Assembly: GCA_000004985.1 (NCBI GenBank)
Contig: GG738867.1
Direction: 5' to 3' (one strand)
DNA length: 64,000 bases
DNA from: Naegleria gruberi
Lineage: Eukaryota
How positions within the stretch are numbered: position 1 is the first letter of the stretch; the number at the start of each line of letters is the position of its first letter. Both the position numbers and the translations under genes were made by a program. Shown piece after piece: positions 931-58,153 of this stretch. The notes under the pieces were generated by a model. That model saw only the letters and a program-made list of their open reading frames with translations. It made no database searches and was not told where the DNA came from.

Positions 931-1677
931 ATGAGTTCGCGTATTGAATACATTTCACCTGAAGGATTGCGAGTTGATGGAAGACGTTCCCATGAAATTA
1001 GAAATATTAAATTTAAATTAAATTTATTTAGTAGAGCCGATGGATCAGCATATTATGAACAGGGCAATACACGTGTATTAGCTGCTGTTTATGGTCCGAG
1101 AGAAGTCAAAAATAAATCACAAATGAAGAATGATAGAGCAATTATTAATTGTGAATATAGTATGGCAACATTTAGTACAGGAGAAAGAAAGAGACAATTC
1201 AAAAAGGATAGAAGATCGACTGAAATTTCAGTTGTGATTAGACAAACATTTGAATCTGTAATTTTAACACATTTATATCCAAGAACACAAATTGATATTT
1301 TCATGCAAGTTCTTCAAGCTGATGGAGGTACTAGATGTGCTTGTATAAATGCTGCAACACTTGCCTTATTAGATGCAGGTATTCCAATGAAAGATTTTGT
1401 TGTTTCATGTGCTGCTGGATTTATTCAAGGTTCTCCATTAACAGATTTAAATTATATTGAAGATTGTGCTGGTGGTCCAGATGTACCAATTGCTCTTCTT
1501 CCAAAACATGATAAGGTCACTTTATTACAAATGGATTCGAAATTATCTTTGGATCAATTTGAAAAGGTTTTGGAACATGCAATAGAGGGTTGTAAACAAA
1601 TTCACAAAGTTATAGATGAACAATTGAAGAAACATACGTATGCACTGGTGAATAAAAGAGGTCTGTTTTCGGCCTAA
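931..1677 (+). CDS. exosome complex exonuclease Rrp41-like (RNase PH domain), 248 aa, single exon
   Basis: Translation shows the RNase PH/Rrp41 pattern: EGLRVDGRRSHEIRNI, GSAYYEQGNTRVLAAVYGPRE, and the C-terminal RNase PH region ADGGTRCACINAATLALLDAGIPMKD. Confidence 0.8.
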   Translation: MSSRIEYISPEGLRVDGRRSHEIRNIKFKLNLFSRADGSAYYEQGNTRVLAAVYGPREVKNKSQMKNDRAIINCEYSMATFSTGERKRQFKKDRRSTEISVVIRQTFESVILTHLYPRTQIDIFMQVLQADGGTRCACINAATLALLDAGIPMKDFVVSCAAGFIQGSPLTDLNYIEDCAGGPDVPIALLPKHDKVTLLQMDSKLSLDQFEKVLEHAIEGCKQIHKVIDEQLKKHTYALVNKRGLFSA

Positions 1678-1739
1678 TTATATTACATTGTAATATCCTT
1701 TATCTCTTTCTTTGTTATTGTTCTGAAGCCATGTAAAGG

Positions 1740-1777
1740 GTGAACTGATTTATATTTCAGAAATTAAGATAGTTGAT
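1740..1777 (+). promoter_or_regulatory. conserved 38-bp upstream element of 5S gene copy 1, with a TATA-like box (tttatattt) about 21-27 bp before the 5S 5' end
   Basis: The sequence gtgaactgatttatatttcagaaattaagatagttga is identical upstream of both 5S copies (1740-1777 and 2844-2881). Flanking sequence outside this element and the gene is unrelated. Confidence 0.6.
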
Positions 1778-1896
1778 GGCTACGGCCATATCACGATGAA
1801 TGCACCTCATCCCGTCCGATTTGAGAAGTTAAGCATCGTCGAGCCACATCAGTACTGAGGTTGGAGACAACTTGGGAACCTGTGGTGCTGTAGTCT
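1778..1896 (+). rRNA. 5S ribosomal RNA gene, copy 1
   Basis: GGCTACGGCCATATCACG...GGTTGGAGACAACTTGGGAACCTGTGGTGCTGTAGTCT aligns to eukaryotic 5S (GCCTACGGCCATACC...GGGAATACCGGGTGCTGTAGGC) and closely to Dictyostelium 5S (GGTTGGAGACAAC). Helix I pairs 5' GGCUACGGC with 3' GCUGUAGUC. Followed by T5. Confidence 0.9.
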
Positions 1897-1900
1897 TTTT
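1896..1900 (+). terminator. Pol III oligo-T terminator (TTTTT) after 5S copy 1
   Basis: T5 run immediately 3' of the 5S helix-I closing strand. Confidence 0.7.
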
Positions 1901-2022
1901 CTTGCAGATTTCACACTTTTGAACTTGGTTTTTCAACAATATTGGCTTGTTTTTATTGGTTTTCAATATTGATTCATTGAGATATTTCCACAACAAAACA
2001 AAATAACTAAATAACCAACACT

Positions 2023-2274
2023 ATGAGCAAAATGCCAGCTAGAAATACTTCATCAAATTCTTCTTACGAAGATAGAATTCCAACAAAAACGGTCTGGTCA
2101 AGATCTAAACCAATTATAGATGGAACTAGACATCGTAATAAAATTGATTATCATCTTGCAAATTTAAATGGTAAACAAATTTCAGTGAAAAGATCTTCGA
2201 AAAATTCAATTGAAAAGAGAGCTAAACAACAATCAACCACCACTAAGAAGATTACCAAATCGAAAAAGATGTAA
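2023..2274 (+). CDS. small lysine/serine-rich basic ORF (83 aa) between the two 5S genes; hypothetical
   Basis: ORF with an A-rich start context and basic composition (possible nucleolar or RNA-binding). No homology recognised. Confidence 0.25.
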   Translation: MSKMPARNTSSNSSYEDRIPTKTVWSRSKPIIDGTRHRNKIDYHLANLNGKQISVKRSSKNSIEKRAKQQSTTTKKITKSKKM

Positions 2275-2843
2275 ATTAACTTGTAACTAATTCAGTAAAT
2301 TGTAAATAACGTTTTGAAATAGATGAAGTTTCAATTTAGAATTGATCAGAATATGAGAAACCAAAATTTGCATCAAGCAATTCAACATGGCAACAGTTCA
2401 ATAAATACTAGGTTGATCAACCTTATCTATTTCTTCAAACAAAACCTGAACCAACAAGATTCTGTCTTCGTTGCCTTCACTGTTCATACAGTCAAAGACT
2501 GTAGCGGGATTGTCGCCATATTCCTGGCAGGCTTCCCGTCGTATCTAATTAATTGAAAATTTTTTTAATTGACATTGCTTCTAAGTAGCGATCTAGTAGA
2601 ATTCGACTCTAAGTTACACAACTTAAAGGCAGTTATAAATATGGTTACTAAAGTTCAAAGTGTTAGATCATTAAGTACTGGTTGGAAATAATGCTCCAAT
2701 TGTTAAAGTTATTGATAACTATAAGGATGAGCAAAATGGTTCTTTCATCCAATTTGATGGAACTCAATTGAAATGGTCATACATTTGCTATTTTACTGAG
2801 TTACGGATGTGGTTTGCCTTGTATTCAGTGGATTATATATAGA

Positions 2844-2881
2844 GTGAACTGATTTATATTTCAGAAATTAAGATAGTTGAT
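2844..2881 (+). promoter_or_regulatory. conserved 38-bp upstream element of 5S gene copy 2 (TATA-like box)
   Basis: Identical to 1740-1777. Confidence 0.6.
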
Positions 2882-3000
2882 GGCTACGGCCATATCACGA
2901 TGAATGCACCTCATCCCGTCCGATTTGAGAAGTTAAGCATCGTCGAGCCACATCAGTACTGAGGTTGGAGACAACTTGGGAACCTGTGGTGCTGTAGTCT
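2882..3000 (+). rRNA. 5S ribosomal RNA gene, copy 2
   Basis: Identical to copy 1 over the whole gene. Followed by TTTT (3000-3003). Spacing to copy 1 is 1104 bp. Confidence 0.9.
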
Positions 3001-3206
3001 TTTATCTTTTTGTCTTTTTGTGGAATAGAATGACCATTCAATTAGAAACAGTAAAAGTATGAAACAAATTTGTTGTTTTATTTCATATAAATAGGCTTCT
3101 CCCATATTTGTCAAGCTAATGAAATAATTTTCATAATATGGAATTATTGACACAACTTTTGAATAACATCTGTCAATTTTAATTTCAATTCCAGATCTTT
3201 CATCCT

Positions 3207-3756
3207 TCAAGATGAAAAGTTATAGTTCATCGTCACTATCTTCATCACTTTCTTCATATAAAAGATAAAGCTGTCCCTCCTTTCATCCACATATAATACA
3301 TCAATATTATTGTAATCTGATTGATTTAAATTAATTTCTCTTTTTTTTGATCCATTCAATAAATCCATTACATAGATTGTATTAATATTATGTATGATAT
3401 ACATTTCATTCTTTGATTTAGCACAATTCATTTTATACTTTGAACTAATCTTACTTTCCCAAATAGGAGATTCTTTTGAATAATCTGTTACATTATCTAA
3501 TATTTTATATTTCTTAATACAATCTCTTGTTCCAATATAAACATTCTGAAATTGACTGTCAATCTGAACAGAACTAAATAAAGGTAATTTAAATTTAAGT
3601 TTCCATGATTTACATTCTGAATCAAATACATAACATTGTTTCTTGGTAGTTATGGCAATTATTAAATTATTTAATTGCTTAGTTGTAACTGTAGTTAAAT
3701 ATGTAATACCAGCAAGTTCTGGAATTGTATCTATTTTATGGAAAGATCAACTAGGA
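3207..3756 (-). CDS. hypothetical protein (at least 183 aa as an open frame; 5' exon or start not resolved)
   Basis: Continuous minus-strand frame ...SFHKIDTIPELAGITYLTTV...NCAKSKNEMYIIHNINTIYVMDLLNG...MNYNFSS* ending at 3207. An upstream stop at about 3757 suggests a spliced 5' exon. Confidence 0.35.
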
Positions 3757-4091
3757 GGAAATTAATTTTGAAATAATGGATGGAATAATGGATGGAATAA
3801 TATCAGTTTTACTAATTCTTGTTCATCTTCGTGCTGTTCTCTTTGGGGAATTTCACTACATATTGCAGCTTTAAGCTTTTTGGAGTGCTGATCATTTATA
3901 CTAATTTGTCGCAGTTGACTTTCTCTTCATTTTTTTTAATTTGGGAGGAAATTGGAAGTTTTTTTAGAGGAATAAATTTCTGAATTTGACCATTAAATTG
4001 AGCAAACACATATCTTTCAATTTATTCAAATATTGGGATCATCCAGATTCATTTATTTACATTGTTATTTTTTATTTAAAATTAAAAAAAA

Positions 4092-6835
4092 TGCAAACAA
4101 TTCAAAAGGCATTTAATATTGATCATTCTTTAAATTGGATCGGAAAGGAATTAAAAATATATGATCGTTCCAATGATAATGAAGATAAATCCTATGATGA
4201 ATGGTTATTAAATTATTCGGATACACTTGTTGCTGTTTCAAGGGATTGTAAATTAGTTGGAATTGGACATTATCGTCATTGTTATTTATGTATATATGAT
4301 AATTCTATAAATGAATTTGAATTAATTCAAGTAAATTCACCATGTAAATATGAAGGGTAAATATGAATATTATTATTTTAATATTTATTTGGATTAAGAG
4401 AGAAAATTACTTGTTTAATGTGGATTTCATTTAGTAATCAAAATTTTCTAATGATTGGATCTTCGGAAGGTTATTTGAGAATTTATGATGTTCAACAAGA
4501 TAAAATTATTCGTGAAGAGAGATTTCACGATTTGGAAATTGTTAAAATTCGATCACAAAGTGTTTTTCACAACACACTTCTTCCAAATTTTCAAAAAGAA
4601 ATTATTTTAATAATATATCCTAATCATGTCATCACTATTGATCCTCTCCATCTCAAAAAGGAATTAAATAGTGAAAATCCTTCCATGGATTTGGATGATT
4701 TAGAATACAAGAAATGGAATTTACAAGAATTTGCTAAACTTAATGATGCTTGTTGTTTATATTCTCATTGTTCTGATTCTTCAATTTTTGAAGTGATGGA
4801 AGAAAAGAGTGAATTTGATATTGTAGCGGTTGGTAAATCAACACTAGCTCTCTACTCAACAGCTAATGAAATTGTTGAATATGTGAGAAAGAGAACAAGA
4901 GTGAAGAAAATTGCAACACAAGTAGCAAGCAAAGTTTATTCTCTTGCATCCAATTACAGCTCATGGTTATGGGGAGGAAATAAGGAAGTTGAGCAACCGA
5001 GTGAACCTGAAGAACCAGAAATATTACCAGGTACACGTATTCCAATTTCCAATCGATTCATAGATGAAAAGAGAGAAATATTTCATGCTGATTTGGATTA
5101 TACAGGAAAATATTTGGCAACGAGTGATTCTTTGGGAAGAATTTTAATATTTGATTTATCAACCATGACTGTTATGAAAGTATTTAAAGGATACAGAGAA
5201 GCTCATTGTTATTGGTTTTTCACTGGATCAGAACCTGAAAATATGAATAGTGAATCAAATATTGAATTATTATTGATATTTGCACCTAGGAGAGGCATAT
5301 TGGAATGTTGGACCATTGATGGAAGGAGATTATATGCACTAACCGTTGGAACTGATAAGAGATTTATTAAGGCATCTGGAAATTTCATTGAAGGAAAAGA
5401 AACAACCTTTCATCCTTCACAATTTTATCTCATCTCACAAACAGATGGATCCATTCAACAAGTAGAATTTGACATTTCACTTGAAAAGATACAAAAAAGT
5501 GATTTTATTGATAATTCCTCTTCTTCAGGTTCTGCAAATCCATTCAAATTACTAATGGAAAATAAACTCAATTAATTCAACAATACAACAATACATTCAA
5601 CAGCTTCTATTAAATTATTGAACATTACAAATTACAAAAAAATGTGGTTACTCGTAGAAACACAACAATTCGTCATCAATAATAGTGAAGACATATCGGA
5701 ACCAACACCATCCGATTCTTCTTCTATTGCAATAATTCCATCAGCAACATCATCCAATATTACTAACACTAGTGGTGATGATAATAATCAGCAACAACAT
5801 CAAGAATCAATTACATCCTCCTCTTCATCCTCTTCATCATCAACAATAATTTTGAATAATTCATTTCTTCATGAAGCACCTTTGAATGTAAATTTAACTG
5901 AATTAAATTCAGCACTTTCAAGAATTGTTAAAGGAAGACATGTTTTATTTTCATGTTTTGAATATTTACTTTCTAATCAATTAATTAAAAAGGCTAAAGA
6001 TGAACAAGAATTAAAAGAAAAAGAATCAATTTTATATAATGAATTATTTCCAATATTTCAAAATTGTTGTGACAAATCATTTATAATAAGTCATAAAATT
6101 CCAATTACACCTCAAATAATTCATGAAGAAAAGACAAATTTAAAAAAGATTTGTGAAAAACATTTAAATTCAAATAATTTTATAACTTTATGTAAACTTA
6201 TTGATGCAATTGAAAAGAATACAGATTATATTCACTCAATAACATGTTTTAATGGTAAAAAGAGTCTTTCACATTCAGATTATAAAAAGTATGATGATTT
6301 GAGACGAGTATTTGCAACAGATAATGAAAAAACAAAAATTAACATCAAGATTGAAATTAAATTGAATACACCAGTTCATATTCATTTAACTAAATGTGAA
6401 TTTGCACCTCCCCTAATAGAAAACAAGAAGAGAAAGGCAAGACAATTAACAAATCTTGAAGAAGAAATGCTTTCCAATAATGATGAAAATGGATCTTTCT
6501 TTCATATTAAAAAGAAGAAGGTTGAAAAGTATGGTCCAAGAAGATTGAAAATTCCAGATGATCTCGCAATTAAAAAGGAACAATTGGAATATATTGGAGA
6601 ATCAAGCATGTTAAAAAATAGATTAAAGAATGAAAGATTACAGAAAATGCTTTTAGAAGTTGATGCTAATTATGATAGAGAACAAGTTTTGGATTTCTTT
6701 TTGGAAACTGAACCTGAATTTTTAATATTCTGTGAAGAGTTACTTTACATTATGGGAAGAAGAGATGATAATGATTTGAAACAAATTCATGAAGTTAATG
6801 CTAAATATGAACAAATGAAACAGAATAAACAATAA
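4092..6835 (+). CDS. RAB3GAP2-like (Rab3 GTPase-activating protein non-catalytic subunit) homolog, multi-exon
   Basis: Exon 1 is 4092-4356 (donor G|gtaaat). Exon 2 is 4435-5575 (acceptor tttcatttag|). Motifs match human RAB3GAP2: EGYLRIYD versus SGYVRFYT, GRILIFDLSTMTVMKVFKGYREA versus [23 protein letters not shown], and FAPRRGILECW versus YAPRRGILEVW. ORF 5618-6835 is in the same frame as exon 2, separated only by TAA at 5573-5575. It contains RHVLFSCFEYL, compare RLPFSCLRNI. The join may be a 75-nt intron 5529-5603, or the downstream ORF may be a separate gene. Confidence 0.55.
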
Positions 6836-7160
6836 GATTATAGTACTTTAGAGAATTTGCCTTAATATATTTTCATGTGGTGTATCTTTGAAGATTACAG
6901 ATGAAACAATTGTATTCAAATGAATTAGATTAATAGACATTTTAGATTTACCGTGAGTGAACCATCAGGATTAAATCACCTCACTCTGCTCAGTTTATTT
7001 ACAGTTTTACAATACCAAATTTTGAATAAATTCCTTAAAAAGCTTTGCCAATTGTTGTACATACTAAAAGTCTAGTGCCCACAAAAACAGGAACAAAAAG
7101 GCGACAATTCCAAGCAAGACCTAAATGTTCAACTAGCCTGTGTGAAAGCAGAGAAAAAAA

Positions 7161-7310
7161 AGTCGCGCAATTCTTTTGAAATTCTCATTTTCGCGCTTAA
7201 TTCGCTGTAGACGCAAATTGTCTGCACAATGCTTTTTTGATTCTCAAACAACCATAAGCCGAATGATAGTGTAAAAATAAGCTCGTTGGTTTTTCGCGTT
7301 CCGCGTTTCT
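7161..7310. promoter_or_regulatory. CpG-rich cluster of E2F-like sites (TTTTCGCGC at 7187-7195, TTTTTCGCGTT at 7289-7300, plus GTCGCGC and CCGCG) 40-190 bp upstream of the 7350 ATG
   Basis: Four CGCG-containing motifs within 150 bp in a roughly 70% AT genome. TTTTCGCGC matches the E2F consensus TTTSSCGC exactly. Confidence 0.4.
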
Positions 7311-7349
7311 CTTTCTTCGTGGATATCAAGCCAAACAAAAAAGCGAAAG

Positions 7350-8888
7350 ATGTACCCACAACCACAAAGTATTAATCAACACTACCCTCCACCAACATCA
7401 TCATCAATTTTACCTTCAATTCCATCAACAACAAGTTTTACTAATACCAATGGTGGCTCTACTATTCTTCATCATCAATACGTGAATAATAGTAATAACA
7501 ATGGATTGATTAATTCCTCTTCACAATCCAATCAATATGGTTATCAACAACAACAAAATGATGATTTAAATAAGAAAGCTTTAACATTACTTTTCAATAG
7601 AACTCCATCAAAACCAGCTACAACTTATTATGATTCGAAGTGTTATGCTACTTCCGGTGTTAGTACTGCCTTACATTATCATGATTCCTCCAATCATCAC
7701 TCGAAAAACATGTTCAGTCAACAACAATACTATCCAAATTATTTGGTTCAAAATATTTCAACAACAACTCAACAACCTGTTAATAATACGACTAACATGT
7801 ACAATCAATTCAATCAAATTTACCCAACCACTACCAGTGCACACGCTCCAGTTAATCCTGTGAGCGCTCACACTATTCCATCCCCTCTTCTTTCCAAAAC
7901 TCAAACTACTACTTTCCACAATAATATTGTTGAATCTGGTGTCATCTCCAATACTACCAATGTTACCTCCGTTAAGACTGTTAGCACTCCTGAACAATCC
8001 ACTATTGATCAAAAAGTGATATCTTCCACAACAAATAATTTGCAATCCTTTAATGAAATTATTGGAATGATAGACGAAAAAAAGAAGCGGAAGGACTCAT
8101 CAGATCAACAACAAAACAAGAAGAGAAAAAAGGAACCTGTCCAAGTTAAGGAAGAAGATGAAGAGGAGGAATGTGAAGAAGAAGTTGTCGAAGAAGATTT
8201 TGTTAATGGTTCTTCCACTGAAAAATTGTTGCCAATAAGAGCTCTCGCTCATCTTGTTGGACTTTCTAAAGATGAAGGTAAAACATGGAGATACAGAGAT
8301 GTTCGTAGAGCTTTATTCGAGAAGACATCAAAGGAACACAGCAACTTTATTGAAAAGAATCAACAACATTCAATTCTTAGACAAAGACTTCCTCACAAGT
8401 TGACTCTTGTTAGCTTCTGTAAAAGGATTATGTTGCTTGTCTTCCACTTTATTATAAGAGATGGTAGAGAGCCAAAGTTCTTTTTGCGCACTCATGTCAA
8501 GAAGGATCTTATTGAAAATACCTTAGAAAACGAGGCACCTGAATTTTACAAGAAGATTAATTGCAATATTGCCATGAAGATACACGCTTTCATTTGTACT
8601 GGTTTATCAATTGAGCAAGCTGCAAAAAATGTTCTTCAAAATATTCCACAAGGTGATAAATCTGCCGTAGCAACAGTCAACGTTACTCAATGCTCTAGTT
8701 CAACAAATAGTTCTGAACAACATTCATCCAATTCTATAGAACCAAAAACTAGTCCAATTCTTGATTCTCCAACTCTTTCCCCAATCAATCCAACACTCCC
8801 TTCGCTTCGTGATTTGCTGAAACAACCAAGTGCTCTGTCAGCTCACGTTAATTGTCAATCCTGTCCACACTGTAAGCAAGAGATTTAA
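7350..8888 (+). CDS. hypothetical Q/N/S/T-rich nuclear protein, 512 aa, single exon
   Basis: Long ORF with homopolymeric low-complexity N-terminus. Contains a KKRKDSSDQQQNKKRKKEP NLS-like stretch, an acidic EEDEEEECEEEVVEED block, a conserved-looking C-terminal half and a C-terminal CQSCPHCKQEI. Confidence 0.5.
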   Translation: MYPQPQSINQHYPPPTSSSILPSIPSTTSFTNTNGGSTILHHQYVNNSNNNGLINSSSQSNQYGYQQQQNDDLNKKALTLLFNRTPSKPATTYYDSKCYATSGVSTALHYHDSSNHHSKNMFSQQQYYPNYLVQNISTTTQQPVNNTTNMYNQFNQIYPTTTSAHAPVNPVSAHTIPSPLLSKTQTTTFHNNIVESGVISNTTNVTSVKTVSTPEQSTIDQKVISSTTNNLQSFNEIIGMIDEKKKRKDSSDQQQNKKRKKEPVQVKEEDEEEECEEEVVEEDFVNGSSTEKLLPIRALAHLVGLSKDEGKTWRYRDVRRALFEKTSKEHSNFIEKNQQHSILRQRLPHKLTLVSFCKRIMLLVFHFIIRDGREPKFFLRTHVKKDLIENTLENEAPEFYKKINCNIAMKIHAFICTGLSIEQAAKNVLQNIPQGDKSAVATVNVTQCSSSTNSSEQHSSNSIEPKTSPILDSPTLSPINPTLPSLRDLLKQPSALSAHVNCQSCPHCKQEI

Positions 8889-33408: not shown

Positions 33409-34244
33409 TTACTTACCAATAGTTTCAAAGGATTGTATCTGAGATTTGATTGTTGTCAACTCTGATTGAATATTTTCATATAATGACTGAAATTGATCTT
33501 TAGCTTGTTGAGTGGAACTCAGTGTTGAAATCACCTTTTTGTTTTGTTCCTTTAATAAGGAACAGTTGCATTCAAGCTCAATGTTTCTTCTCTGAGAGAA
33601 ATGATAAATGAATGGAATACACTGAAACAAACCTTGATTTGTTCAAACACCACTTGTTGAGCCTCGAACTTTAGTTTAGAATCCAGTGATTCTTTCATAA
33701 GTAAATCTCTTTCTGAGGACAATTCTTTGATCCTTTCCATGTAATGTCTTTCTAACCTCTCTCTTTCTTGTTCATTCTTCTTTACTATTGAGGAGATGAT
33801 ATCCATTTCAGCTAATGATGTTGTTCTTGCTGAATCTAAATCCTTTGCGCAAAGGGATTGATATTTGGCCAGTTCTTGCTCCCTCTTATTGATGATCACA
33901 AATTGAAGTTGAAATAATTGACAATTACTTACTCTCAAATCTTGAAGTTCTTGAATCATATCAAGTAGATATTCCTTTGTTTCTCCAAACATATTTTCTG
34001 CCTTTGCAATTAATTCACTATGCAGAAGAATTGAGGAAGGCTTGTGTGTGTCATCATCGACCATTGCTGATTGTAGATGTTCCTCCTCTAATGTAGATGT
34101 TTCCATTGGTTCGGTGAAAGTTGATTCATGCTCTGAAGAAGAATACAAGCCTACTACTTCCTCTTCTGTTGCTGTTGTAGATTGATCAATAGGCTTTTCT
34201 TGTTGATTATCCTTAATTGATTCATCCATTTCTTCTTGATTCAT
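33409..34244 (-). CDS. hypothetical coiled-coil protein (at least 2 exons), acidic N-terminus
   Basis: ORF 33552-34244 (230 aa) is heptad-rich (ELAKYQSL..., ERERLERHYMERIKELSSERDLL). It probably joins the 33409-33630 ORF through a short intron. No family assigned. Confidence 0.4.
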
Positions 34245-34321: not shown

Positions 34322-35738
34322 TTACAAAATTGTACAGACTCCCTTATCACAATCTGCGTTCTTCGTGAAATTAGGACAACTCTTCAAATAATTTGGAACG
34401 TTGAGAGGCAGATCGTTGTGAAGAGCTACTTTAGGATTAGTTTCGAATAATTTGTTAATCTTGTGGAATTTCATATTCTTCTTCATATTTGCAAACTTGT
34501 TAGCATCTGAAATGAGTTGATCGAATAAAAAGACACAACAAACAGCAACTCTCACATATTTTTCATTCTTTTCTTCCTTTTCATGTCTATTATTACATTC
34601 ATTTGCCAAATATGAAAGAACTTTTTCATATCCATCAGCATCTTCAGTGAAAGATGTTTTCAAAGCCTTATTAATATTATGTGGATTGACAAGGAAGTGA
34701 CGTAATGTTTCATCTTCACTCATATTGTAATCTTTTTTAACGTGTTGAATGGCTCTACGATACATGGCAAAATCGTTATTTAAACCTGCTTGCCAAGTTT
34801 TCAAATAATCCAAAATAATAACAACATCAAGAACATCAATCAAAGCCTTTGCTTCATCAGCACTTGGTGAAGCATTATCTTTGCAAAATCCCTTCACAAA
34901 GGCAACAACATGTTCTCTCATGACATCATTGAATTGGAACAAATCTCTCATAATTTGAATGTTTGGACCCAAAATAGTCAAGTTTTGTTTGTATAATTCC
35001 TTCTTGTTATCAGCATCACCTCTAACTTGGATAAGTTTACCTATTGCTGTCTTGTAAGTAAATATTGTTTGGATTTGTCTTTTACCTTCCTCAATGATTC
35101 TTTCCTGTGTTATTATTGTTGTTGTGTTGTGTTGTTATTTGTTCATCATTAGAATGATTTGTTATTGTTGTTGTTATTATTATTATTATTGTTATTATTA
35201 TAATTGTTATTGGTATTGTGTTCAATATTTGTTGTAAAATATGCGTATAGTATCGTATCACATTGGAATATATGTAACAATAGTGTTGAACCAATTTGTT
35301 AAAACACAAAATTAGTAGAAAAAGTGTTTTTGTTGTTCAGTATAAAATTAGTGTTGCGAGAGTTTAGTATAATATTATTAGAAAGGAAACAAGATAATCA
35401 TTGGCAACACATTCGCAAATAATTATCAATGATCACAAGTGATAGTTTCCAATAGAAATATATAATAAAATATTCGCATCATCACAAGTGATTAGTAATT
35501 TCAACCAATTAGAATTATATAAAGCAATATATCATAAAAAACAAATTGTTGTTCATCATTTGTGTAAATTTAAATTTTACAAATTGTGTAAAACCAACAG
35601 TTATCCTTTCCAATGTCATCAAATAAAATCACTTACCAGAGCACGAGTTCCTTTCAGATCTGTCATATCACTTTTAAAAGTCTTTCCCAATTGACTGGTT
35701 TCTTCAGCATCAATATCAATCATGTCAGACATGTTTAA
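34322..35738 (-). CDS. CYRI/FAM49 (CYFIP-related Rac1 interactor, DUF1394) homolog, 2 exons separated by an unusually long intron of about 540 bp
   Basis: Exon 1 is 35639-35738: MSDMIDIDAEETSQLGKTFKSDMTDLKGTRAL|gtaagt. Exon 2 is 34322 to about 35100. LDYLKTWQAGLNNDFAMYRRAIQHV aligns with FAM49B [25 protein letters not shown] and CYFIP [25 protein letters not shown]. The C-terminal region RVAVCCVFLFDQL is comparable to FAM49B CLRVMVGVIILYDHV. Confidence 0.65.
35106..35220. repeat. TTG/TTA-type microsatellite / low-complexity tract within the CYRI intron
   Basis: Reads tgttattattgttgttgtgttgtgttgttatttg...gttgttgttattattattattattgttattattataattgttattggtattg. Confidence 0.8.
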
Positions 35739-56269: not shown

Positions 56270-58153
56270 TTAATCTTGTGGAGCAACAAGTCCATTTTCC
56301 TTTGGTTTCAACAAGTATTCCAAAATTGAAGGGGTAATTTCTTCCAACAAGTCAAAGGCCTTTTGCTTATCCATGTCATTGGTTTCAACGTACCATTTAA
56401 GCTTTGGTTCAGTACCACTGTTTCTGATGGTTGCAGAAGTACCATTTTCAAAAGTGAAAGTAATCATTTGAGAAGTTGGAGTGGCAGGAAGAAGTGGCTT
56501 GTTATCCTTTTGGGCAGAATCATAGTCTTTAGTCAAATCTCTGAGAGAAGCAATCTTGAAGTGCTTTGAACTATCTCTAATACTTGGAATGAAGGTTGGA
56601 TATCCACCATTTTCAATCTTTCTGAGTTCTTCCATAACCTTGTGCAACAAGTCAGTGGATGGTGTGAAGAAGTAACGAGTCTTCATGGCAAAGAAACCAT
56701 ACTTCTTATAGATATTTTCAATTTGTTCACTCAAACGTTTAACAACACCTCCCTTGTAGTGACTGTGGGCCATTTCAGCAAAAACTGAAGCAGCTCTAAC
56801 ACCATCCTTATCCAAACTACAGTCACCAACCAAGAATCCAATTTCAACTTCATAACCTAACAAGAAAGTGTATCCATCCTTGATATATTGATCAGCTCTG
56901 TTACCAATCCATTTGAAACCAGTGAGAGTTTCATCAAACTTGAAACCTTCATGAGCAGCCATAGCTCTCAAAATCTTTGAACTGACGGTACTGGCAATCA
57001 TGACACACTTGGCGTAGTCTTCGTTTGGATGAGAAGTCTTATATTGAGTCCAAACCCAATCAGCCAACAACATGGCAATTTCGTTACCATTGAAAATTCT
57101 CCAAGATCCATCAACTTGTCTTTCAGCAACAGCCAATCTGTCAGCATCTGGATCGTTAGCCAAAATGAGAATAGCACCTTCCTTTTCACACTTGTCCATG
57201 GCAAGTTTGAGAGCACCTTTACCTTCCTCAGGATTTGGATATTTTACAGTGGTAAATTCTGGATCAGCTTCAATTTGCTCTTCAACAGGAATGCATTTTG
57301 GTAAACCATACAAATCAATAGCTCTATATGTGAAAGGAGTACCAACACCATGCATAGCAGTATATACAATTTTCTCATCGGAAATAACTGGCTTACCATT
57401 GCTGTAATTATATTTACGAATGGCTTCAAAATATTCATCAGCTTGAGTTTTGGTTGGATCTTGCAACAAGTGAGACCATGGAGACAAATCAATAACTTGT
57501 TCTTCATCACCTCCATTTCCGTCTGTCTTTAATTGTTTTCTAACTTCTTCCCAAATTGATAAATTTTGCATGATAGCAGCAGAAATGTATTCATCTTGTG
57601 GAGGAATAATTTGACAACCATTTTCCCAATATAATTTATAACCATTATCTTGCTTTGGGTTGTGTGATGCAGTAACCATGACACCAGCAATGCATCTCTC
57701 TCCACTATTACTTCTATTAATATTACTGACAGCAAAAGGAACAAATGGTGTGCATACCATTGTTCTAAACAAATGTACAGTGTATCCCTTGGAGAGGAAA
57801 ACACCAGCAGTCAAGTTTGCATATTGTTTAGAATGATGTCTGCCATCATATCCGACAACTACAGAAACTTTGCTCCTATCACTAACATCTTTTGTACATT
57901 CTTCAATGTATTTACAAACTCCTTGAGATGTTTGCAAAATAATCAATTCATTCATGCATGAAAATCCAGCAGCCATCAAACTTCTCAAGCCAGCTGTACC
58001 AAATTCAATACGCTTACATAATCTCTTTTCCAATTCAGCTACATTTCCCTGTTGGACAAGGTTTTGAATATCCTTTCTAGTCACTTCAAAAGGATCAAGC
58101 TCCAACCATTGATCGACGAGTTGTTGAATATGTTGAGGAATTGTTTGGGACAT
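56270..58153 (-). CDS. phosphoglucomutase-2-like alpha-D-phosphohexomutase (PGM2/phosphopentomutase family), 627 aa, single exon
   Basis: Active-site serine loop TASHNPKQDNGYKLYWENG. Also GTAGLRSLMAAGFSCMNELIILQTSQG, the metal-binding loop NDPDADRLAVAE, and sugar-binding GYEVEIGF. Confidence 0.85.
   Translation of the reverse strand: MSQTIPQHIQQLVDQWLELDPFEVTRKDIQNLVQQGNVAELEKRLCKRIEFGTAGLRSLMAAGFSCMNELIILQTSQGVCKYIEECTKDVSDRSKVSVVVGYDGRHHSKQYANLTAGVFLSKGYTVHLFRTMVCTPFVPFAVSNINRSNSGERCIAGVMVTASHNPKQDNGYKLYWENGCQIIPPQDEYISAAIMQNLSIWEEVRKQLKTDGNGGDEEQVIDLSPWSHLLQDPTKTQADEYFEAIRKYNYSNGKPVISDEKIVYTAMHGVGTPFTYRAIDLYGLPKCIPVEEQIEADPEFTTVKYPNPEEGKGALKLAMDKCEKEGAILILANDPDADRLAVAERQVDGSWRIFNGNEIAMLLADWVWTQYKTSHPNEDYAKCVMIASTVSSKILRAMAAHEGFKFDETLTGFKWIGNRADQYIKDGYTFLLGYEVEIGFLVGDCSLDKDGVRAASVFAEMAHSHYKGGVVKRLSEQIENIYKKYGFFAMKTRYFFTPSTDLLHKVMEELRKIENGGYPTFIPSIRDSSKHFKIASLRDLTKDYDSAQKDNKPLLPATPTSQMITFTFENGTSATIRNSGTEPKLKWYVETNDMDKQKAFDLLEEITPSILEYLLKPKENGLVAPQD

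Follow-up and report, generated by a model that had tools for sequence, protein, structure and literature searches.

Two identical 5S rRNA genes of Naegleria gruberi as probable members of a dispersed chromosomal family with a short upstream TATA-like block

In the stretch of DNA analysed here (64,000 nucleotides, hereafter the window), two 5S rRNA genes with the same sequence lie close together, and the sequence which they share extends a short distance upstream of each gene. The locus therefore raises the question of whether this upstream stretch is part of a promoter or a by-product of the way in which the two copies became alike, and of how such a pair fits the organisation of 5S genes in the organism.

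A search with the Rfam model RF00001 identified two full-length 5S rRNA genes of 119 nt, identical to each other and both on the plus strand, at positions 1778–1896 and 2882–3000. Each scored 105.4 bits, compared with a gathering score of 38, and was aligned over model positions 1–120, which places both copies in the 5S family. Beyond this pair, the Rfam and tRNA scans of the 64-kb window found no further 5S gene and no tRNA gene. The repeat search of the window revealed one long direct repeat, its copies 1104 bp apart, in which positions 1740–1899 were perfectly identical to positions 2844–3003; this 160-bp unit comprised 38 bp of upstream sequence, the 119-nt gene and a TTT. Position −39 already differed between the two copies, the 3′ flanks diverged past the common TTT, and identity between the copies in the region from −80 to −45 was 22%, equal to background. 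The 38-mer, GTGAACTGATTTATATTTCAGAAATTAAGATAGTTGAT, occurred exactly twice in the 64 kb, at 1740–1777 and 2844–2881 on the plus strand, each time directly 5′ of a gene, and had no match in shuffled sequence, even with 3 mismatches allowed. It contained a TATA-like sequence, TTTATATTT, at 1749–1757 (−29 to −21) in the first copy and at 2853–2861 in the second, both on the plus strand and both beginning with TTTAT at −29. An earlier note on this DNA had described two identical genes 1104 bp apart, a duplicated unit consisting of the gene and 38 bp upstream, unrelated 3′ flanks and a TATA-like box at about −25; this description was borne out, with the additions that the unit includes the TTT and that the box, fairly placed in the note, starts at −29.

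Examination of the gene itself revealed a box A-like element, AGTTAAGC, at +50, which fits the box A consensus, and a box C-like element, GGTTGGAGAC, at +82, which fits a relaxed box C pattern only. By sequence match alone, the arrangement is that of the internal control region (ICR) of a type 1 RNA polymerase III (Pol III) gene, in which box A is expected at about +50 and box C at about +80. On the 3′ side, the last T of the first gene and the following TTTT, as read from the sequence, formed a run of five T residues at 1896–1900 on the plus strand, a candidate Pol III terminator. In the second copy the corresponding region (3000–3011, plus strand) consisted of four T residues (3000–3003), an A, a TC and a second run of five T residues (3007–3011).

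Upstream of the pair, on the plus strand, was the gene for RRP41, the RNase PH subunit of the exosome (931–1677, with Pfam RNase_PH and RNase_PH_C), which is single-copy. The first 5S unit started 62 nt past the RRP41 stop codon and ended 126 nt before the ATG of a small gene at 2023–2274 (plus strand), which encodes a basic protein of 83 amino acids (aa). As RRP41 is a single-copy gene and lies so close to the first unit, the locus is anchored in unique chromosomal DNA. The 83-aa ORF had four relatives by phmmer; in BLASTP it was 42% identical end to end to one homologue (P0249; E=3e-22), the homologues being 100 and 128 aa long. Since they align over nearly its full length, the ORF is taken as a real small protein gene, although a Pfam scan of this ORF and of the other small ORFs up to position 4360 gave no family. 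The small ORFs noticed earlier between the 5S copies thus include at least one real gene with conserved homologues.

The proteins encoded in the window pointed to its lineage. RRP41 had 96% aa identity to that of a Naegleria-like Logan contig and 88% to that of Willaertia magna, and the phosphoglucomutase encoded at 56270–58153 was 85% identical to that of N. lovaniensis; for W. magna, Acrasis kona and dictyostelids the values were 77%, 55% and 45–47%, respectively. By blastn, the window was syntenic with a W. magna contig across RRP41, phosphoglucomutase and two other genes. These similarities place the window in the genus Naegleria (Heterolobosea). In Dictyostelium discoideum, the 5S gene sits on the extrachromosomal linear rDNA palindrome, and the earlier note had set the pair against this arrangement. 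The comparison does not apply here, because the flanking proteins are Naegleria-like and the phosphoglucomutase shows only the above 45–47% identity to dictyostelids; with a Naegleria lineage, the pair has to be set against the circular rDNA plasmid of Naegleria and not the D. discoideum palindrome. In both organisms the large rRNA genes are extrachromosomal, but in Naegleria their carrier is a circular plasmid of about 14 kb with single-copy 18S, 5.8S and 28S genes and without a 5S gene (PMC12482156). It follows that 5S rRNA must come from many chromosomal copies located between protein-coding genes.

Such copies have been catalogued by Feng et al. 2012 (PLoS One 7:e36878, PMC3369914), who listed 279 candidate 5S genes of N. 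gruberi, unlinked to rDNA, and reported for them an ICR and a TATA box. Their Table S1 contains two entries on scaffold_23, at 33781–33897 (R33378) and 34885–35001 (R33659). Calculation from the Table S1 coordinates showed that the spacing of this pair is also 1104 bp and unique among 162 neighbour distances, and that the following copy on the scaffold, at 152238, is beyond the reach of a 64-kb window (PMC3369914). Based on this coincidence of spacing and on protein similarity, the window most probably corresponds to roughly 32,001–96,000 of scaffold_23 of N. gruberi NEG-M, so that the two genes described here had already been catalogued. Therefore, chromosomal 5S genes of N. gruberi that are unlinked to rDNA and possess an ICR and a TATA box are already known, including the coordinates of this pair. 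Our observations agree with those of Feng et al. in all of these features, namely hundreds of chromosomal copies unlinked to rDNA, the ICR, the TATA box and T-run terminators, whereas the unit boundary at about 38–40 bp, the fixed position at −29 and a comparison between species are absent from that paper.

The 279 entries fell on 117 scaffolds, and neighbouring entries were a median of 33.9 kb apart; the distance was below 2 kb in 9 of the 162 cases and below 5 kb in 32. This distribution describes a dispersed family with occasional loose local pairs, and the label in Table 1 of the same paper (PMC3369914), which gives "tandem arrangement: Y" together with "Located with rDNA units: N" for N. 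gruberi 5S, does not fit it in the former respect. One common similarity score was shared by 161 of the 279 entries, both scaffold_23 copies among them, a pattern compatible with most of the 5S genes forming one homogeneous class.

Further copies were sought in related assemblies. When metagenome contigs were scanned for a 25-nt pattern taken from 5S, one locus (L008) and a group of contigs from another protist were obtained, and scanning of viral contigs with the 5S pattern gave no match. It was also noticed that an open reading frame runs antisense to the 5S gene, which appears in the window as a spurious 48-aa ORF at 2895–3041. Used as a protein query, this ORF matched eight "proteins" that had been mis-called in ENA assemblies, and these led to loci L018–L025. 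The 5S gene at L008 was identical to that of the window at 118 of 119 positions and adjoined unrelated genes. L018 had a 5S gene identical to the window's, on a contig that ends 2 nt upstream of the gene and thus lacks the promoter region. At L019, a window-type 5S gene with a 2-nt insertion was found among tRNA-Glu, tRNA-Met and tRNA-Glu, about 100 nt from tRNA genes. The six remaining copies (L020–L025) came from one sample and represent a sister-species 5S, 90% identical to the window's, each with different neighbours. In all, 11 related copies were available from environmental assemblies, each a single gene in its own context, and in 11 of 11 at least TTT directly followed the ...TCT, as expected of an oligo-T terminator. 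Together with the unrelated spacer and flanks of the window pair and the spread of the Table S1 entries, the different neighbours of each related copy bear out the dispersed chromosomal organisation that had been proposed from the window.

At the RRP41 locus itself, the syntenic loci L001, L002 and L003 of relatives had no 5S gene, although the L001 contig stops 35 bp after the Eaf7 gene and the site is uninformative there. Eaf7 lies immediately 3′ of RRP41 both in L001, the closest relative, and in W. magna, and a tblastn search did not find Eaf7 in the window. The absence of 5S from the syntenic RRP41 site fits gain and loss of 5S copies. In fission yeasts, gain and loss of 5S copies are frequent, and 5S genes in direct repeat mediate recombination (bioRxiv 10.1101/2022.12.06.519325).

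For conservation of the upstream region, nine independent copies of Naegleria type were aligned without gaps, anchored at +1. Conservation climbed from about −43 and stayed high through to −1, which amounts to positional conservation of the upstream block among these copies. The mean information content from −33 to −21 was 0.555, compared with a maximum of 0.403 over 340 far-upstream control windows. Among the sister-species copies, the gene was 99.4% identical, the region from −36 to −1 was 52% identical and the control region from −80 to −45 was 26% identical, and here too conservation began at about −40, which coincides with the upstream limit of the window's unit. TTTAT started exactly at −29 in five of the nine copies, i.e., those of the window, L020, L022, L024 and L025. 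With a per-position frequency of about 0.003, this corresponds to a probability of about 1e-9 after correction for 40 positions, an optimistic figure as paralogues are not independent; L020, L024 and L025 in particular have a longer block in common and do not count as statistically independent. The copies at L021, L023 and L019 had no TTTAT at −29 and showed only degenerate T-rich versions. At the sequence level, the element at about −30 to −24, kept among copies with unrelated flanks, is that of a TATA-assisted 5S gene.

Two minor observations concern the N. gruberi-type upstream regions, of which there were three. Upstream of L019 there was an apparent insertion of about 7 nt, which MAFFT alignment of the three regions did not resolve. 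By eye, a proximal motif was common to all three, reading TTCAGAAATTAAGAT in the window, TTCAGTATTAAGAT at L019 and TTATAGAATTAACAT at L008.

Taken together, the two genes are probably ordinary and functional-looking copies within the dispersed 5S family on the chromosomes of Naegleria, organised as self-contained Pol III units of about 160 bp and made identical by recent duplication or conversion. Within each unit, the upstream block of about 38–40 bp would provide TTTAT(A/T) at −29 to −24 for binding of the TATA-binding protein (TBP) within TFIIIB and would thereby fix the start site; the 119-nt gene would contribute the internal box A-like and box C-like elements; and the T-run would close the unit as terminator. 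Binding of TBP/TFIIIB at −29 and transcription of both copies are predictions drawn from the comparison of copies and from other species. Since the identity covers exactly the 160-bp unit and the flanks are unrelated, the best explanation is a recent event within the locus, either duplication or gene conversion between direct-repeat neighbours 1.1 kb apart. If conversion was the process, as we infer, its tract would have been confined to the stretch already common to both copies, stopping where homology ends.

The perfect identity of the pair is, however, double-edged with respect to promoter function. Since upstream identity between typical copies is about 52%, an identity of 100% exceeds what selection alone would leave and indicates recent local duplication or conversion. 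The identical 38 bp could then be a mere by-product of that event without any promoter role, the ICR alone driving transcription as in classical type 1 genes. Such an explanation would be in line with the box A-like and box C-like elements, with the ICR reported previously (PMC3369914) and with the base composition of the genome, whose A+T content of about 69% makes TATA-like words common. We nevertheless consider it unlikely, because the region from −40 to −1 is conserved above the far-upstream controls across unrelated flanks and across species, TTTAT recurs at −29 in five of nine copies, and conservation in the sister species begins at the very boundary of the window's unit. The earlier proposal that the upstream element is functional is accordingly upheld as probable, but on the ground of the comparison between copies and species, as the identity of the pair demonstrates only recent duplication or conversion. 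The same note had named other 5S copies lacking the motif as evidence that would speak against it; related copies do carry the block at the level of a motif, but the 38-mer is not identical in them, and it is degenerate in L021, L023 and L019.

The opposite reading, in which the upstream block of about 40 bp is the main promoter (type 3-like or a TATA-dependent hybrid) and is largely independent of TFIIIA, would make the unit a portable 160-bp cassette present at about 260 sites. [quoted passage not shown] Yet TFIIIA is notoriously divergent, so that failure to detect it is weak evidence of its absence, and the box A-like and box C-like elements are kept at their canonical positions, although these fall inside a structurally constrained RNA. 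We therefore give this possibility only a small chance. If true, it would account for the spread to about 260 sites and for the apparent lack of TFIIIA, and it would be moderately interesting with regard to how Pol III promoters evolved.

Short, sharply bounded units in unrelated contexts, hundreds of copies and a syntenic site without units in relatives could also suggest a 5S-derived mobile element, retroposed in the manner of a SINE and inserted twice close together. This was rejected as very improbable for the following reasons: 1) there were no target-site duplications, the longest word shared by the flanks being 4–5 nt, equal to random expectation; 2) there was no A-tail; 3) the unit includes 38 bp 5′ of the gene that are not transcribed and would be missing from a Pol III transcript; and 4) the upstream blocks of the sister species differ from one another, unlike copies of one master element. 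Finally, the possibility that the pair arose by misassembly or from a collapsed fragment of extrachromosomal rDNA is hardly credible and was rejected, as both copies lie in unique sequence between single-copy genes syntenic with W. magna, a conserved protein gene separates them, Naegleria rDNA plasmids contain no 5S (PMC12482156), and independent metagenome assemblies show the same design of a single gene in unique context.

With the pair regarded as ordinary members of the dispersed family, it matters little beyond annotation. Modest additions are the boundary of the unit (from −38 to the T-run), the element at a fixed −29 that also occurs in a sister Naegleria species, the evidence for turnover of 5S at the syntenic RRP41 locus and the finding that the "tandem" label of the catalogue disagrees with its own coordinates.

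As a kind, the combination of dispersed 5S genes and an upstream TATA-like element is already known from Schizosaccharomyces pombe, Neurospora crassa and plants. A requirement for the upstream TATA has been demonstrated experimentally in the 5S systems of S. pombe, N. crassa and Arabidopsis. Hamada et al. in 2001, Tyler in 1987 and Cloix et al. in 2003 reportedly described the upstream TATA of 5S genes in S. pombe and N. crassa and an element at −28 in Arabidopsis. A TATA at −30/−24 in Pol III genes of S. pombe and plants promotes recruitment of TFIIIB via TBP (PMC7279448), and the 5S genes of S. pombe and Yarrowia lipolytica are dispersed (PMC2566860). The Naegleria genes resemble those of S. 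pombe, N. crassa and Arabidopsis in combining a TATA-like element near −30/−25 with internal elements, and resemble those of S. pombe and N. crassa in being single genes scattered among genes transcribed by Pol II. They differ from the fungal and plant systems in that Naegleria belongs to Discoba and has no recognised TFIIIA homologue, and in that the part played by the TATA is here predicted from sequence comparison. Y. lipolytica has about 100 dispersed 5S genes, none of them in rDNA, some of which form tRNA–5S dicistrons, and TFIIIA is dispensable for part of them (PMC2566860). The location of dispersed copies outside rDNA is common to both organisms, but in contrast to these dicistrons the two 5S copies of the window are not fused to tRNA genes, and only the variant at L019 lies among such genes.

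In Logan contig L001 (SRR29240419), the closest relative, and in Willaertia magna (contig L002), both of which are syntenic with the window at RRP41, an Eaf7 gene lies on the minus strand directly after RRP41 (L001:10748-11193 and L002:10695-11140, respectively), whereas no Eaf7 was found by tblastn anywhere in the 64-kb window (E>4). In the compared part of the window (1678-5860), its position is occupied by a stretch of about 2.7 kb, preceding a Rab3GAP2-like gene, that contains the two identical 5S rRNA genes (window 1778-1896 and 2882-3000, plus strand), a gene for an 83-aa protein and ORFs without a detectable family. The 83-aa product (window 2023-2274, plus strand) is a small basic protein without a Pfam family; it aligned end-to-end with homologues of 100 aa and 128 aa (P0249, P0252), and a 16-residue internal segment of P0249 was missing from it. 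Downstream of the 5S pair, an ORF with a Rab3GAP2_N domain (window 4418-5575, plus strand) is followed in a different frame by a 405-aa ORF (window 5618-6835, plus strand), which matches the W. magna gene adjoining Eaf7; the two ORFs are probably parts of a single gene, separated either by an intron or by a change of frame.

On a larger scale, RRP41 (window 931-1677) and phosphoglucomutase (window 56270-58153) are separated by about 55 kb in the window, as opposed to about 6 kb in W. magna (L002:10001-18077), where three segments between these two genes match window 5860-8588. These results indicate that a large insertion or rearrangement in this interval separates the two lineages.

In the catalogue of Feng et al. 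(2012; PMC3369914), the N. gruberi 5S genes were scored as "tandem arrangement: Y" in Table 1. However, the coordinates in Table S1 of the same paper spread 279 N. gruberi hits over 117 scaffolds, with neighbours a median of 34 kb apart; therefore, the N. gruberi 5S genes are a dispersed family, contrary to the tandem label. Some of the entries in Table S1, namely the 15 hits of lowest similarity (<0.70), may represent fragments or false positives.

Read on its antisense strand (window 2895-3041, minus strand), the Naegleria 5S gene gives an open frame of about 35 codons, and this ORF appears in public metagenome gene catalogues as predicted "proteins" (P0121-P0128), which are spurious annotations; the spurious ORF served as a query for fetching 5S loci via protein searches. 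A metagenome contig (L019:1-1354) carries a Naegleria-type 5S variant whose loop C region contains a 2-nt insertion; genes for tRNA-Met(CAT) and tRNA-Glu(TTC) lie about 100-190 nt away from it. Another tRNA-Glu and a partial tRNA are also present on the same 1.35-kb contig, which is a small Pol III gene cluster, in contrast to the context of the window 5S genes. In a second protist (VFQM/VFQO contigs, L004-L016), the 5S sequence is distinct (GGGTACGGTCATCTTG...), and the genes are likewise dispersed, each a single copy in a unique context. TTC immediately before +1 is common to several of these genes, and several have A/T-rich words (for example, TATAAA or CATAAA) near -28 to -23.
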